From the NCBI GenBank assembly GCA_965197645.1, contig OZ240219.1, positions 896,001-960,000 of the forward strand: a stretch of 64,000 nt of DNA. The letters run 5' to 3'. The position numbers and the translations under genes were made by a program. Source of the DNA: Dehalococcoidia bacterium (GTDB lineage: Bacteria > Chloroflexota > Dehalococcoidia > Plut-88900). A model generated the notes under the pieces. That model saw only the letters and a program-made list of their open reading frames with translations, did no database searches and was not told where the DNA came from. Positions 5,649-12,134 of the stretch are shown in pieces; position 1 is the first letter of the stretch, and every line of letters starts with the position of its first letter.

Positions 5649-7595
5649 ATGAAGCTCTCCCGTATCCATCTGGTTCTCCCTTCGCTGGCAGTTTTGGTCT
5701 TGGCTCTGGCCTGCGGCTCCGGTGCACCGGGGGTCGTCTCAACCCCTACCATCGAACCCGCTGAAGACTCGGTGGAGGGCGCAATCGAGGTATCCTTTCC
5801 CGACATTCCCACCCCACCCGACCTCGACCTGTATGCCCTCGCCGAAGCCTTTGGGCTGAGCCCGGATGGGGCCATCCCCCGCCTGACCGCCATCGATCCC
5901 CATGACGAGGCGATAGGCGTCCAGCGGACGTTCTGGATCGTCGACCTGGACGAGCGGGAACCCCTCCAGGTCTCTGCAACCCTGCGATACATCAGCCCCC
6001 ACCTCTACATGTACGTCGAAGATGGACGAGGGGTATCGGAGGAGGACCTCGCCGAGGCTGCCCAGGAGTTCGAGGAGGTGATCTACCCCGCTATGGCTGC
6101 TCGATTTGGCGGTCTGCCGGACGCCGGAGACGACGGCGCCGGACGCCTTACGGTGCTCCACGCTCGCATTCCCGCCGTGGCGGGCTACTACAATCCGGCC
6201 GATGAGTATCCCTCCTTGATAAACCGCTACAGCAACGAACGGCGAATGATGTACATCAACCTGGACGCCGCCTGGCCCGGGACGGCCTACTACTCCTCGG
6301 TGCTGACCCACGAGCTTCAGCATGCTATCCACGCCGCGGCCGATCCCACAGAGGAGGGATGGATCAACGAAGGACTGTCGACCCTCTCGGAGGAGATCGT
6401 TGACCCGCAAGTGACATGGTATCTGTACTACAGAGACGAGCCGGACACCCAGCTTACCGGCTGGGGGGTCGACCCGGGCACTTCCGGCAAACACTACGGC
6501 GCAGCCTATCTGTTCATGAAGTACTTCAGCCAGCACTATGGCGGCCCGGAAGCGGACGGTGGGATCAGCGCCCTGGTCTCCCATCAGGCCGACGGCATCG
6601 AAGGAATCAACGCCTACCTCTCCGAAAGCGGATACGAAACCGACTTCGAAAAGGTGTTCAAGGACTGGGTCGTGGCCAACTACCTGGACAAAGCGGAGGG
6701 CGGTATCCACAGCTACGAGGACCTGGATTTCCGGCTGCCCACGACCAGGAGGGCAACCGACTACGGGCGCATCTCGGGGGCGGTGCCCCAGTATGCCGCT
6801 CACTATGTGGCCGTGAGCCTGAAACAAGGCAGCGCCCGCATAGTGTTCCACGGCACTCCACAAACGAGACTCCTGCATAACCAGGCTCACAGCGGCAGCT
6901 GGCAGTGGTGGAGCAACCAGGGCGATGCCATCAACTCCACCCTCACCCGTGAGGTGGACCTGCTCGGCCACAGCGAGGCCAGCCTGGATTTCTGGGCCTG
7001 GTACGATATCGAAGATGACTTCGATTTCGCCTACGTGGTGGCCTCAACCGACGGGGGCCGCACCTGGGATATCCTTCGGGGAGACCACTCCACCGACGAT
7101 ACTCTCTTGGGCAATAGCTTCGGACCTTCCTACTCGGGCGTCAGCGGGGACGGAGAGAACCCCCAGTGGGTGTTCGAGAGCATAGACCTGTCCCCCTACG
7201 CCGGTCGAAAGGTCCTGGTCCGGTTCCAGTACGTCACAGACGGAGCCGTCAACATTCGCGGCCTGGCCATCGACGACATCTCCATCTCCGCCGTCGGATT
7301 CGAGGATGATGTCGAACATGGGGACGACGGGTGGATTGCGGAAGGGTTCGTCCGCATCCCGGACCTGGTGCCCCAAAGCTTCTCCGTTCAGGCCATCCAC
7401 TTTGGCGATACGGTCTCAGTTAGCGAGGTCCCCCTTTCGGCCGGGCAACGGGGCGAGCTGACGGTCCACGGCTTCGGCAGCGAGATCGATGAGGTGGTGC
7501 TGGTGATAGCGGGGACCACTCCCTTCACCAACGAGCTCGCCTCCTACTACGTTTCGGTCCTGCCCGTCTTAGATCCGGGTAGTGCCTCGTTTTGA
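5649..7595 (+). CDS. Lipoprotein zinc metallopeptidase (M30-like HExxH domain plus immune inhibitor A-like C-terminal domain)
   Basis: Lipobox LALAC; HELQH...WINEGLS; WYDIEDDFDFAYV...STDGGRTW...RFQYVTD. The last 5 residues and stop codon come from the transposon's left IR. Confidence 0.85.
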   Translation: MKLSRIHLVLPSLAVLVLALACGSGAPGVVSTPTIEPAEDSVEGAIEVSFPDIPTPPDLDLYALAEAFGLSPDGAIPRLTAIDPHDEAIGVQRTFWIVDLDEREPLQVSATLRYISPHLYMYVEDGRGVSEEDLAEAAQEFEEVIYPAMAARFGGLPDAGDDGAGRLTVLHARIPAVAGYYNPADEYPSLINRYSNERRMMYINLDAAWPGTAYYSSVLTHELQHAIHAAADPTEEGWINEGLSTLSEEIVDPQVTWYLYYRDEPDTQLTGWGVDPGTSGKHYGAAYLFMKYFSQHYGGPEADGGISALVSHQADGIEGINAYLSESGYETDFEKVFKDWVVANYLDKAEGGIHSYEDLDFRLPTTRRATDYGRISGAVPQYAAHYVAVSLKQGSARIVFHGTPQTRLLHNQAHSGSWQWWSNQGDAINSTLTREVDLLGHSEASLDFWAWYDIEDDFDFAYVVASTDGGRTWDILRGDHSTDDTLLGNSFGPSYSGVSGDGENPQWVFESIDLSPYAGRKVLVRFQYVTDGAVNIRGLAIDDISISAVGFEDDVEHGDDGWIAEGFVRIPDLVPQSFSVQAIHFGDTVSVSEVPLSAGQRGELTVHGFGSEIDEVVLVIAGTTPFTNELASYYVSVLPVLDPGSASF

Positions 7596-7596
7596 A
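7570..7596 (+). repeat. Left target-site duplication (7570-7577) and left terminal inverted repeat (7578-7596)
   Basis: TAGATCCG|GGTAGTGCCTCGTTTTGAA read directly from the sequence. Confidence 0.92.
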
Positions 7597-7629
7597 TTGC
7601 TCACGCCTCGCTCCGCTAGCTATAGGGTG

Positions 7630-7658
7630 TTGACAAACTATAACGGCCCACTTACGAT
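7630..7658 (+). promoter_or_regulatory. sigma70-like promoter inside the left end of the element
   Basis: TTGACA-17 nt-TACGAT. Confidence 0.6.
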
Positions 7659-7692
7659 TGACACGTGCATTAGCTGGGGTGAGGAAGGACAC

Positions 7693-7890
7693 ATGACCAC
7701 CATTGAACAACGAGTTGGTCAGCTAGAGGGTGCTTATCAACACCTTGCAACCAAGGAAGACGTGGCAGGGTTGAAATCTGAACTGAAAGGCGACCTGCTC
7801 AATGTTGTCATCAAGTTGGCTGGTTTACAGCTTCTCGGTATAGGCGCAGTCGCCGCCATAATGCACTTCCTGGGAGGAGGGGGGTCATAA
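7693..7890 (+). CDS. Small coiled-coil protein with C-terminal TM helix (DUF1640/CCDC90-like)
   Basis: 65 aa from ATG 7693, RBS GAGGAAGG; LATKEDV motif followed by a hydrophobic tail. Confidence 0.65.
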   Translation: MTTIEQRVGQLEGAYQHLATKEDVAGLKSELKGDLLNVVIKLAGLQLLGIGAVAAIMHFLGGGGS

Positions 7891-7892
7891 TC

Positions 7893-8138
7893 ATGCGAGG
7901 ACCTAACGGAGAAAAGAGACCTAGGGACCCCATCGCCCGTGCTGTCATGGTAGCAAAGATAGCTACTGGCGAGATTGAAGAACAGCTGCCATCTAAGCGG
8001 CGCAACGGCGGCCTGAAAGGCGGCCCTGCCCGTGCTAAGGCCCTCAGCCCAGAGCGGCGCAGGGAGATAGCAAAAAAGGCTGGTTTGTCGCAAAAGAAAA
8101 ACTTGACTGCGGAGGAGAAGGGCGGAATCGAACCGTAA
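7893..8138 (+). CDS. Small basic protein (GEKRP...IATGE...KGGxARA...RREIA type), often seen beside IS1-like transposases
   Basis: 81 aa, Lys/Arg-rich, KGG-like motif; the association with transposases is recalled knowledge, not searched. Confidence 0.7.
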   Translation: MRGPNGEKRPRDPIARAVMVAKIATGEIEEQLPSKRRNGGLKGGPARAKALSPERRREIAKKAGLSQKKNLTAEEKGGIEP

Positions 8139-8204
8139 TGCTAGGTTGAGCTAGCGATTCGGGGGGTCTCATCCCCCGTCCCGTCCAACGGGCAACCCTC
8201 TCTC

Positions 8205-10914: not shown

Positions 10915-11012
10915 AAGCGCTTCGCGGCGAACGTCACGAGCAGTTTTAACACCAGGTGGCGGCGCTCTCGCTCACTCTCGGCCAGATAGTCCAAACGCCG
11001 TGTGGCTGTCAT
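10911..11012 (-). CDS. Possible 33-aa peptide convergent with the transposase (not in ORF track)
   Basis: RBS GAGGTAGG, ATG at 11012, MTATRRLDYLAESERERRHLVLKLLVTFAAKRF*; stop overlaps the transposase stop in CTAG. Confidence 0.3.
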   Translation of the reverse strand: MTATRRLDYLAESERERRHLVLKLLVTFAAKRF

Positions 11013-11121
11013 CAGTAATTTCCTACCTCTCTTGCCTTGTTTAGCACGGTCTATAGCTTGTCAAGGGCATCTTATCTGGTTTATTATTCGTCTCACGTTA
11101 CACTAGTAGCGGAGGGGCGAA

Positions 11122-11601
11122 ATGACAACCAAGAAAGAAACCGCACCTAGTCGCGACCTCACTTTCGAGTGGGGACGGACCGCTTCGGCAGACCTGGCCA
11201 AAATCGGTGATACCATTGACTCTCGGGCGATAGGTATCTTCGCAACGGGCAGTCTCATCATCGGCGTTTCAGCTACAGTTGTTGAGACTATCTTGGACTG
11301 GTCGAGCCTAGCATTACTGTTCGTTGTGGCTGGTTATCTGGCAACAGCGGTGTTCGGTTTGCTCATAGTGTTTCCACATCCTGCACCAGGCCCGGACAAC
11401 CCCACGACACTTAGGAAACGGTACTGGCCTATGCCACCTGCAGAAGCCCAAGAGGAGTACTGGCAGTGGGTGGAAGATGAGTACGAGCAATGGTACCCCA
11501 AAGTGAACAAGAAGGGGCGTTATCTCAGGTACGCTATCGGCGGGCTAGGTGTAGAGGTTTCAGCACTTATTGTCTGGGTTATCCTCGTTACTGGCTTCTG
11601 A
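11122..11601 (+). CDS. Hypothetical 3-TM membrane protein
   Basis: 159 aa, RBS GGAGG; helix, two TMs, loop, terminal TM layout. Confidence 0.7.
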   Translation: MTTKKETAPSRDLTFEWGRTASADLAKIGDTIDSRAIGIFATGSLIIGVSATVVETILDWSSLALLFVVAGYLATAVFGLLIVFPHPAPGPDNPTTLRKRYWPMPPAEAQEEYWQWVEDEYEQWYPKVNKKGRYLRYAIGGLGVEVSALIVWVILVTGF

Positions 11602-11763
11602 CGAGTCCTTTTCTCTGGGCGAACCTTTCTCTGACCCCATGCTCAAGCGGATGATGTCAGCGTCGGCCATAGGCTTCATTCGCAAAACGGAGTCTTTAGG
11701 ATTGCCGCCAGTGCCTTCATCCTGTGAGTCCCCGCCGTTGCCGTCTTTTTCTTTCTCAGTCAT
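11560..11763 (-). CDS. Small hydrophilic protein with its own promoter
   Basis: ATG 11763 with RBS GGAGG; minus-strand TTGACA-17-GACAAT at 11814-11786. Confidence 0.5.
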   Translation of the reverse strand: MTEKEKDGNGGDSQDEGTGGNPKDSVLRMKPMADADIIRLSMGSEKGSPREKDSSEASNEDNPDNKC

Positions 11764-11842
11764 GTTTGTATCCTCCAAGGCACTCATTGTCGGAAATTGA
11801 TTGGTCAGTGTCAATACCCTATACGAAAGAAAGGAAGACACC

Positions 11843-12076
11843 ATGGAAGGTCACACCCACATCATCCAACTAAGCGCCCCTAACATCGAAGTGAAAGCCA
11901 AGGAACTCTATCCGGCAGGAGACAGCAGCACGCCGAACAAGTTCGTGGTTCAGTGTCCCGATTGTGGTACTGAGGTTCTCGAATTCAAAGGGCAGGTCAA
12001 AGAAGTGTTCCATATCCCTGGCAGTGGGCTAGACAAGATACGCAAGGGGCTGGAGGAACAAAAGCCTAATCCCTAA
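11843..12076 (+). CDS. Small protein with HxH...CPDC (possible Zn ribbon)
   Basis: ATG 11843 with RBS AAGGAAG; 77 aa. Confidence 0.55.
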   Translation: MEGHTHIIQLSAPNIEVKAKELYPAGDSSTPNKFVVQCPDCGTEVLEFKGQVKEVFHIPGSGLDKIRKGLEEQKPNP

Positions 12077-12107
12077 CCCCCTCTCCCTCTCTCCCAAATT
12101 CACCAAT

Positions 12108-12134
12108 TTCAAACTGAGGCACTACCTAGATCCG
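12108..12134 (-). repeat. Right terminal inverted repeat (12108-12126) and right target-site duplication (12127-12134)
   Basis: TTCAAACTGAGGCACTACC|TAGATCCG, followed by TGA (the original peptidase stop). Confidence 0.92.

Follow-up and report, generated by a model that had tools for sequence, protein, structure and literature searches.

A complete IS1-family element with passenger genes in a Dehalococcoidia genome and the lineage to which it belongs

The window analysed here is a stretch of 64,000 nucleotides from the genome of a Dehalococcoidia bacterium (contig OZ240219.1, positions 896,001 to 960,000). The element under study occupies window positions 7578-12126 (4,549 bp) between two housekeeping genes. 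It is flanked by a perfect 8-bp duplication, TAGATCCG, and bounded by 19-bp terminal inverted repeats, IRL on the left and IRR on the right, which are identical at 17 of 19 positions. Both ends start with GGTAGTGCCTC and have the form of the ~20-bp GGT..TG terminal repeat of IS1-type insertion sequences (IS). A single gene for a transposase with a DDE catalytic triad lies in the centre, a small gene for a basic protein (here called the helper) lies near the left end, and the remaining small open reading frames (ORFs) are found on both sides of the transposase gene (Table 1). An earlier note, made from the sequence alone, had listed the repeats, the perfect duplication and the single central transposase, and all of these were reproduced in the sequence. 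Its reading of the locus as a complete IS1-family element with passengers inside one pair of repeats was likewise borne out by the intact transposase, the ends and the alignment to the IS1 proteins InsB and InsA, as was the presence of cargo on both sides of the transposase, both slots being filled in this copy. Taken as a whole, the 4,549-bp segment is very probably one transposable unit, an IS1-family transporter IS composed of a two-gene core and cargo.

The boundaries were examined at the level of single nucleotides. The right end shows one mismatch to the 20-nt consensus of the lineage described below, GGTAGTGTCTCAGTTTGAAA, at position 8, and the left end shows four, at positions 8, 12, 13 and 20; at positions 12-13 IRL deviates from IRR as well as from the consensus. 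By the 21-bp end consensus, GGTAGTGnnTCAGTTTGAAAT, which defines membership, the window element belongs to the lineage. The content of guanine plus cytosine (GC) is 54.8% in the element compared to 62.1% in the 3 kb on either side, and the lower value is uniform across the unit. The upstream 660-aa gene takes its last codons from the left copy of TAGATCCG, its original TGA stop is now located past the right copy, and with the insertion in place the gene reads five codons into the left end. Removal of the element and one repeat copy in silico restored the stop of this gene (…CCG TGA).

Assignment of the transposase was carried out with family profiles and by alignment to IS1 itself. The best NCBIfam family was IS1 (NF033558; E 2.5e-14, 53.7 bits, cut-off 100), and in Pfam the protein reached 22.1 bits for DDE_Tnp_IS1 (PF03400; cut-off 24.1), with rve_3 also just below its cut-off. 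A profile of eleven transposase homologues (A1) was compared by hhalign with the proteins of E. coli K-12 IS1A (768 bp). It aligned to InsB with an E value of 3.7e-5, a probability of 71% and 29% identity over 119 columns, and D66, D139 and E207 of the DDE triad and the ERHNL…R…FSK motif were in register with InsB. The helix-turn-helix (HTH) of InsA aligned to transposase residues 7-45 (E 1.2e-4). Since both the InsB core and the InsA HTH align, the transposase, as judged from these alignments, combines an InsA-type HTH and an InsB-type catalytic core in one chain. Database homologues number at least 8,000, many of them with PF03400 and the name 'IS1 family transposase' (NCBI, JGI); homologues at 73-77% identity exist, and the best in a scan of metagenome contigs was 64% identical.

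The ends of E. coli IS1A, GGTGATGCTGCC and GGTAATGACTCC, start with GGTGATG and GGTAATG, and those of the window element are similar. The target duplication of IS1 is 8-9 bp, and that of the window element is 8 bp. The architecture of the two is different. IS1A has two overlapping frames in 768 bp, whereas the window element has one fused ORF in 4,549 bp. In the classical group of the family the insA and insB' frames are joined by a -1 frameshift and the element measures ~0.7-1.2 kb and is devoid of passengers, in contrast to the single ORF of 298 aa and the greater length seen here; single-ORF subgroups exist within the IS1 family. The window transposase does not have the zinc finger of InsA, and compared to InsB it is longer by ~45 aa inserted between the second D and the E and by an extension at the C-terminus. 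IS1 has neither cargo nor a separate gene for a small partner, both of which are present in the window element.

The distribution of such elements was studied in relatives, in a genome collection and in metagenome contigs. Among 40 relatives, a transposase match was obtained in nine, and six loci were examined for ends. In five of the six, ends and a perfect 8-bp duplication delimit elements of 2.05-4.09 kb, four with GGTAGTG… ends and one with the variant AGTACTG…; the sixth locus (G007) has end-like sequences on one side only. In the genome collection, 58 of 80 loci from many phyla showed family-type ends and a perfect 8-bp repeat around the transposase, 19 showed none, and 3 had unrelated repeats and were dropped. 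The 80 metagenome loci gave complete elements in 30 cases (26 unique), many contigs being too short to hold one. These counts answer in the affirmative the check put forward in the earlier note, namely that the repeats should be associated with homologous transposases elsewhere. The resulting set comprises 89 unique elements including the window copy (88 others), which range from 1,933 to 7,568 bp (median 3,205), the window copy being the fourth longest. None of the 89 is a bare IS of ~1 kb, and extra DNA is present in every one. An 8-bp duplication was found in all 88 other elements, in a search that itself demanded a repeat of 8 or 9 bp. The hosts include Dehalococcoidia, many Alphaproteobacteria, Acidobacteriota, Nitrospirales and others. 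The core of the lineage consists of two genes, that of a basic protein of ~75-80 aa near the left end and that of the transposase.

The relative with the variant ends (G002, L031:6272-9400; AGTACTG… ends, 8-bp duplication TACTCGTC) has a transposase split in two frames and retains a homologue of the small protein. It is probably a decaying sister lineage.

Of the 62 other elements in the first set, 60 have a homologue of the helper; with the window protein as query, one was detected in 82 of all 89. In 80 of these 82 the gene precedes the transposase gene in the same orientation, and its median distance to the left tip is 270 bp. An alignment of 30 helper sequences (A2), in which the window protein is 46-62% identical to its 29 homologues, showed two conserved blocks: an N-terminal block, MPKGPxGxKRPADVIGxAVxVAKIATGEIEE, which is intact in the window copy, and a C-terminal block, GGKARAxxLTPERRxEIAKKAAxxRW. 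No Pfam family was found in the 30 members and no sequence relative in the PDB (best E 0.79). The helper modelled alone by AlphaFold (AF2) forms three helices (pLDDT 72, pTM 0.38). The model of the transposase-helper complex reached an interface score (ipSAE) of 0.83 (0.80-0.84 in three runs), as against 0.01 for the best of three controls. In calibration of the tool, 58 of 80 solved complexes and 2 of 110 mismatched pairs attained the mark applied to such models; this calibration holds only roughly for alignments built in this analysis. At least 53% of the contacts were common to the runs, and the partner pLDDT was at least 59. In the model, helper residues 1-30 contact transposase residues 16-22, 66-72, 91-108 and 230-245. 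The modelled complex supports binding of the helper to the transposase. Because of its conserved upstream position and the complex model, the gene at 7893-8138 is a core gene of the lineage and not a passenger. The ~11 small passengers counted in the earlier note are thus present as small ORFs, one of which belongs to the core, leaving ~10.

Small accessory genes are known from other IS. A passage on IS91 describes Orf121 as a small accessory ORF with a proposed role in transposition (PMC13181058). The small genes of IS1 (InsA) and IS91 (Orf121) likewise precede the transposase gene in the same orientation and are proposed to regulate or assist transposition; in contrast to both, the helper gene is usually 0.6-5 kb of cargo away from the transposase gene. 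The helper also differs from InsA in that the equivalent of the InsA HTH is already within the window transposase, the helper being a separate protein with no Pfam or PDB sequence relative.

The space between the two core genes was measured in 80 elements. The median is 1,257 bp in a range of 108 to 5,063 bp, and 78 of these elements have 578 bp or more. In 36 of 82 elements more than 120 bp also follow the transposase gene, and the window copy uses both slots. Homologues of the other ORFs of the window element were found neither in the 62 other elements nor in ~165 related loci. In the lineage, the cargo that separates the two core genes or lies outside them is swappable.

Target choice was addressed by reading the flanks at an offset of +15 to +17, counted from the base at which the duplication starts, that is 7 bp past the repeat. 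TTG was present at this offset in 42 of 62 first-set sites (right only in 21, left only in 19, both in 2), and at other offsets it occurred 0-4 times each. TTGACA was matched at 5/6 or better at the fixed offset in 26 first-set sites, and in none when the offset was shifted by ±1 to ±3. The independent metagenome sites gave TTG at the offset in 15 of 26 (12 right, 2 left, 1 both), and when all sites were combined with longer flanks, TTG(ACA) was located at 7 bp in 56 of 87. A good -10 hexamer follows 16-18 nt on in 20 of these 56 sites, compared to 0-5 in seven shifted controls. From this excess in hexamers and spacing, the insertion sites of the lineage are enriched for real sigma-70-type promoters, with the element in either orientation. 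The HTH of the transposase gave a sub-threshold match to sigma-70 region 4 (Pfam, E 0.025), which is a hint only. At the window site TTT occupies +15..17, and the -35 hexamer TTGAGG of the downstream gene starts at +17, 2 bp past the lineage norm of 15; in G002 and G001 a similar TTGAG(A/G) hexamer lies 5′ of the orthologous 170-aa gene.

The orientation of the element with respect to TTG is even at the genome loci (21 right, 19 left) and skewed in the metagenome contigs (12 right, 2 left), which could be a clade or sampling effect. At one locus (L089, ~5956-5995) the left flank is the end of another lineage element (…CTGAGACACTACC directly 5′ of the duplication), and TTGACA is at the canonical offset on the opposite side; two lineage elements appear to be stacked at one promoter. 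The lineage ends themselves carry TTGAAA/T at positions 15-20. Mimicry of the ends as the source of target choice was considered; the target TTG is 15 nt and 7 nt from the junctions as against 14 nt in the end, and the proposal is therefore kept as a loose idea only.

Transporter IS (tIS), in the passages of two papers that deal with them, hold passenger genes inside IS ends and lose them only by events other than transposition (PMC9330008, PMC7986276). This definition fits the window element, in which the passenger genes lie with one transposase in one pair of IS ends. The examples named in those passages (ISDsp3, IS6 family) carry one passenger gene, whereas the window copy carries about ten ORFs, and in contrast to those examples the whole lineage has obligatory cargo slots. 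In the literature searched, a partner protein, cargo or -35 targeting was not described for IS1; ISfinder and TnPedia were outside the scope of these searches and a catalogued relative is possible. ISfinder lists an IS1 subgroup, ISMhu11, with members of up to ~4.6 kb, a name that was not found in the literature searched. The lineage is seemingly undescribed within the IS1 family. The window element itself is real, complete and of an ordinary kind, a transporter IS.

The earlier note had proposed a search for the empty site in reads or relatives. The genes for a peptidase-like protein, the 170-aa protein and enolase are adjacent, with no insert, in three relatives (G001, G002 and G035), where the intergenic spacers are ~370 bp, ~70 bp and ~30 bp respectively, compared to ~70 bp in the window minus the element. 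At the level of gene adjacency an empty site was hence found. At the level of an allele, the joint 7577->12127 was not seen in the contigs of three runs, which contain the stretch wholly or in part; as rare variants are lost from contigs, this result speaks neither for nor against excision. A second sample of the same study also contained pieces identical in sequence to the element. Short-sided joints that came up in the search (8071->10363 and 10662->12106; sides of 20-38 letters, 90% likeness) were read as related elements of other organisms.

Several observations weigh against the assignment of the unit or against parts of the wider picture. The transposase falls below the curated cut-offs of both NCBIfam (53.7 of 100 bits) and PF03400 (22.1 of 24.1 bits), and the hhalign probability to InsB is just 71%. 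The window helper does not have the near-invariant R67 and W68, its C-terminal ...AAxxRW being replaced. Modelled by itself with AF2, the helper gives a mediocre structure (pLDDT 72, pTM 0.38), and the score of the transposase-helper complex is a model confidence obtained from our own alignments and no measurement. Neither an empty-site allele in the contigs of three runs nor a second copy in the genome was seen, and the left repeat carries two extra changes. TTG at the offset is absent in 31 of 87 sites, and the target preference is therefore a tendency and not a rule; the window itself, with its -35 at +17 and not +15, is among the 20 of 62 sites that have no TTG there. Function is established for none of the passenger ORFs.

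The degenerate left repeat and helper C-terminus, together with the single copy, indicate that the window copy may no longer move. The locus could then be an immobile fossil, in which a member of the lineage inserted once, has since lost its activity and persists as a fixed island of accessory genes; we consider this possible, though less likely than not. The element is single-copy in the 3.21-Mb single-contig genome, where no second or partial copy of its DNA and no paralogue of its encoded proteins was found. The deviation of IRL at positions 12-13 from IRR and from the consensus, the loss of the ...AAxxRW motif, the identical pieces in the second sample and the excision joint not being seen in contigs all fit such a history. 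Against it, the transposase ORF is unbroken, keeps every catalytic residue and is preceded by a near-consensus promoter, the duplication is perfect, the GC contrast is still marked, and rare excision products would not be visible in contigs. The description of the element as recently active, made in the earlier note, accordingly retains the perfect duplication and the GC contrast in its favour, with the single copy, the changes in the left repeat and the helper that has lost Arg-Trp opposed to it.

Two further explanations concern how the unit came to be. A composite built in place, in which a short IS1-like element grew by later insertions or capture of neighbouring DNA and the cargo never travelled, would account for cargo on both sides of the transposase with none of it common to relatives, and for the several separate promoter-like sites in the cargo. 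Internal copies of the terminal repeats or other repeats were however not found within the element, the GC is uniformly lower over the whole unit, and all 89 elements have cargo in the same slots (36 of 82 also past the transposase). The flanking host genes are adjacent in G001, G002 and G035, therefore no host DNA is inside the element. A composite origin is thus improbable. Still less credible, and in our view very nearly negligible, is the view of the element as a small transposable prophage or a satellite of a phage: one ORF has a phage-family match and several of the small membrane proteins are holin-like in shape, but structural, replication and packaging genes were not found in the 4.5 kb (Pfam, NCBIfam, PHROG), two of the three passenger proteins tested had no phage match, and the ends and transposase are of IS-family type. 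An IS1-family transporter IS that travelled as one unit is the reading we prefer.

For a transporter IS of this kind, the transposase would bind the 21-bp conserved ends and the whole unit would be inserted through an 8-bp staggered cut, either by simple insertion or by cointegration, by analogy with IS1. The helper may act as a subunit of the transpososome or as a regulator. Its N-terminal helix, modelled against the HTH and the catalytic core, would leave the basic C-terminal tail free for nucleic acid. Promoter-proximal targeting would place the element such that genes are not disrupted; at the window, insertion would have replaced just the stop codon of the upstream gene and left the downstream promoter intact. 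A more far-reaching proposal, which we put forward tentatively and regard as less likely than not, is that the lineage is a two-subunit, promoter-seeking relative of IS1 in which the helper and the sigma-region-4-like HTH together read TTGACA. Such elements would insert 7 bp upstream of promoters and shuttle an open cargo slot (defence genes, odd tRNAs and, here, unique small membrane proteins) between phyla.

The lineage is of wider interest in being very common and phylum-crossing, with cargo in all 89 delineated elements. Two of its features were not found described for IS1 in the literature searched: the conserved transposase partner, which belongs to no known protein family, and the constant spacing between insertion sites and a -35 hexamer. 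Should these features be borne out, the lineage would provide a simple natural system for promoter-proximal insertion of DNA, a route for the spread of defence and addiction genes and of tRNAs that is free of plasmids and phages, and a practical annotation rule for thousands of 'hypothetical' genome islets. For the present genome, it explains a 4.5-kb low-GC island of orphan micro-genes.

Table 1. Features of the element and its immediate flanks, in window coordinates. RBS, ribosome-binding site.
Position	Strand	Feature	Basis
7570..7577	.	Left copy of target-site duplication, TAGATCCG	sequence
7578..7596	+	Left terminal inverted repeat (IRL), GGTAGTGCCTCGTTTTGAA	sequence
7630..7658	+	Promoter-like site TTGACA-17-TACGAT, 5′ of ORF1 and helper gene	consensus match only
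7693..7890	+	Passenger ORF1, 65 aa; coiled-coil-like N-terminus, one C-terminal hydrophobic helix, good RBS	
7893..8138	+	Helper, lineage core gene; 81-aa basic protein, predicted transposase partner	homologues, alignment, complex model
8114..8202	-	tRNA-like sequence, type II cloverleaf, anticodon GAG; overlaps helper 3′ end	ARAGORN
8297..8409	+	Nearly perfect hairpin of ~113 nt, between TTGACA-like hexamer and ORF3 (ORF3 leader)	
8475..8858	+	Passenger ORF3, 127 aa; one N-terminal hydrophobic helix, acidic C-terminal part, orphan	
8877..9080	+	Passenger ORF4, 67 aa; Cys/His-rich N-terminus (3 C, 3 H), C-terminal hydrophobic helix	
9139..9390	+	Passenger ORF5, 83 aa; sole ORF with clear phage-family match	PHROG
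9353..9574	+	Passenger ORF6, 73 aa; hydrophobic C-terminal half, weak RBS, start uncertain	
9571..9759	-	Passenger ORF7, 62 aa; basic, good RBS, divergent from transposase gene	
9961..9989	+	Promoter-like site TTGACA-17-TATTAT (11/12), directly 5′ of transposase gene	consensus match
10018..10914	+	IS1-family DDE transposase, 298 aa; single intact ORF, central	family/profile matches
10911..11012	-	Doubtful ORF8, 33 aa; abuts transposase stop codon	
11122..11601	+	Passenger ORF9, 159 aa; three hydrophobic helices, rare but conserved	
11560..11763	-	Passenger ORF10, 67 aa; acidic, low-complexity, good RBS, convergent with and overlapping ORF9	
11843..12076	+	Passenger ORF11, 77 aa; one CxxC pair, 3 His	
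12108..12126	-	Right terminal inverted repeat (IRR), reverse complement GGTAGTGCCTCAGTTTGAA	sequence
12127..12134	.	Right copy of target-site duplication, TAGATCCG	sequence
12144..12171	+	Host promoter-like site TTGAGG-16-TATAAT with TG, of downstream 170-aa gene	consensus

Most of the ~11 small ORFs are preceded by Shine-Dalgarno-like sequences, and ~10 are passengers once the helper is taken out. The earlier note had described most of them as tiny membrane, Zn-binding or phage-type ORFs. Hydrophobic helices were found in five of the passengers; 'Zn-binding' corresponds to Cys/His counts in two ORFs only, and zinc-ribbon matches of ORF11 were sub-threshold (Pfam). The label of phage-derived micro-genes holds for ORF5, 1 of ~10 passengers, and not for the rest: ORF5 matches phrog_2201 (function unknown) at 1.6e-12 and gave one phage tblastn match (8e-5). 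ORF4 has a weak match to a PHROG holin (E 0.009). For ORF1, 151 representative clusters were matched at E<=1e-3, a family of small proteins that has no Pfam name, and ORF3 matched only itself among 5.8 billion proteins, with no match in phage records and a best Atlas score of 0.79, below the useful range. ORF6 overlaps ORF5 by 38 nt. No family match was obtained for ORF7 in Pfam, NCBIfam, PHROG or PADLOC. ORF9 has 4 homologues at 50-60% identity and no match in PADLOC or phage records. A precomputed tag marked ORF9 as the Pycsar effector PycTM (PF18967) and was rejected: hmmscan gave no match at E<=10, the family search of the genome gave no match at the locus, and no cyclase is present in the element. 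Over the passengers as a whole, NCBIfam gave nothing and Pfam sub-threshold matches only, and PADLOC gave zero matches over 10 element ORFs.

Cargo with recognisable domains is carried by relatives of the element. In Pfam searches a cluster of HTH_3 and Peptidase_M78 (an IrrE-type peptidase-regulator) was found in 10 elements. HTH_3 proteins were found in 9 elements, in 3 of which a HigB-like partner accompanies them (25.6 bits, cut-off 27). Pfam also detected a protein with a NYN domain, a ClpP-like SDH protease and a complete Type ISP restriction-modification enzyme. The last of these (1,375 aa) is carried, along with a second specificity-domain protein, by a 6.4-kb member (L103:2983-7934). 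In view of the restriction-modification, HigB-like, peptidase-regulator and protease genes of relatives, our best guess for the window cargo, a speculative one by analogy, is that it may comprise accessory genes of the conflict or exclusion type.

Two RNA-like features, the tRNA-like sequence and the hairpin, were added to the passenger inventory of the earlier note. ARAGORN identified the tRNA-like sequence as tRNA-Leu(GAG); its acceptor stem is paired throughout, U33 is present, the T-loop matches the consensus and the T-stem has 3 bp. Its minimum-energy fold is the cloverleaf (z -2.1). The best Rfam model was tRNA-Sec at 25.8 bits, below the gathering thresholds of 47 (tRNA-Sec) and 29 (RF00005), so that by Rfam the sequence does not count as a tRNA. 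It is unrelated to the tRNA-Leu genes of the host, which encode CCA. In four other elements (L046, L048, L072 and L076) tRNAs that reach the Rfam threshold lie on the strand opposite to the small gene, 13-50 nt downstream of it, and a fifth (L028) has an Rfam-confirmed tRNA elsewhere in its cargo. The tRNAs of these five elements have unusual ARAGORN anticodons (TTA 'stop', AAC, ACT) or very long variable arms. Since Rfam tRNAs sit alike in the four other elements, the window sequence occupies a recurrent position of the lineage, though it may be degenerate. The hairpin gave a z of -3.5, and none of 200 shuffles folded as well; it had no match in Rfam and no other copy in the genome.

Two observations were made elsewhere in the same genome, outside the window. 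An isolated end-like sequence, GGTAGTGCATCAGTTTGAC, lies at C1:3081602-3081620 (L005:1501-1519). At its tip, the next 8 plus 7 nt are followed by TTGACA, which is the target signature of the lineage. No transposase or small gene was found near it, and a weak partner, GGTAGTGAATAATCTTGTT (13/19), is 470 bp off with no matching duplication; the site may be what is left of a second element that has decayed. At C1:1714430-1714502 ARAGORN predicted a 73-nt tRNA-Leu(TAG) beside a TTGACA-containing stretch. It does not have the long variable arm seen in the other Leu tRNAs of the genome and may be another mobile or odd tRNA.

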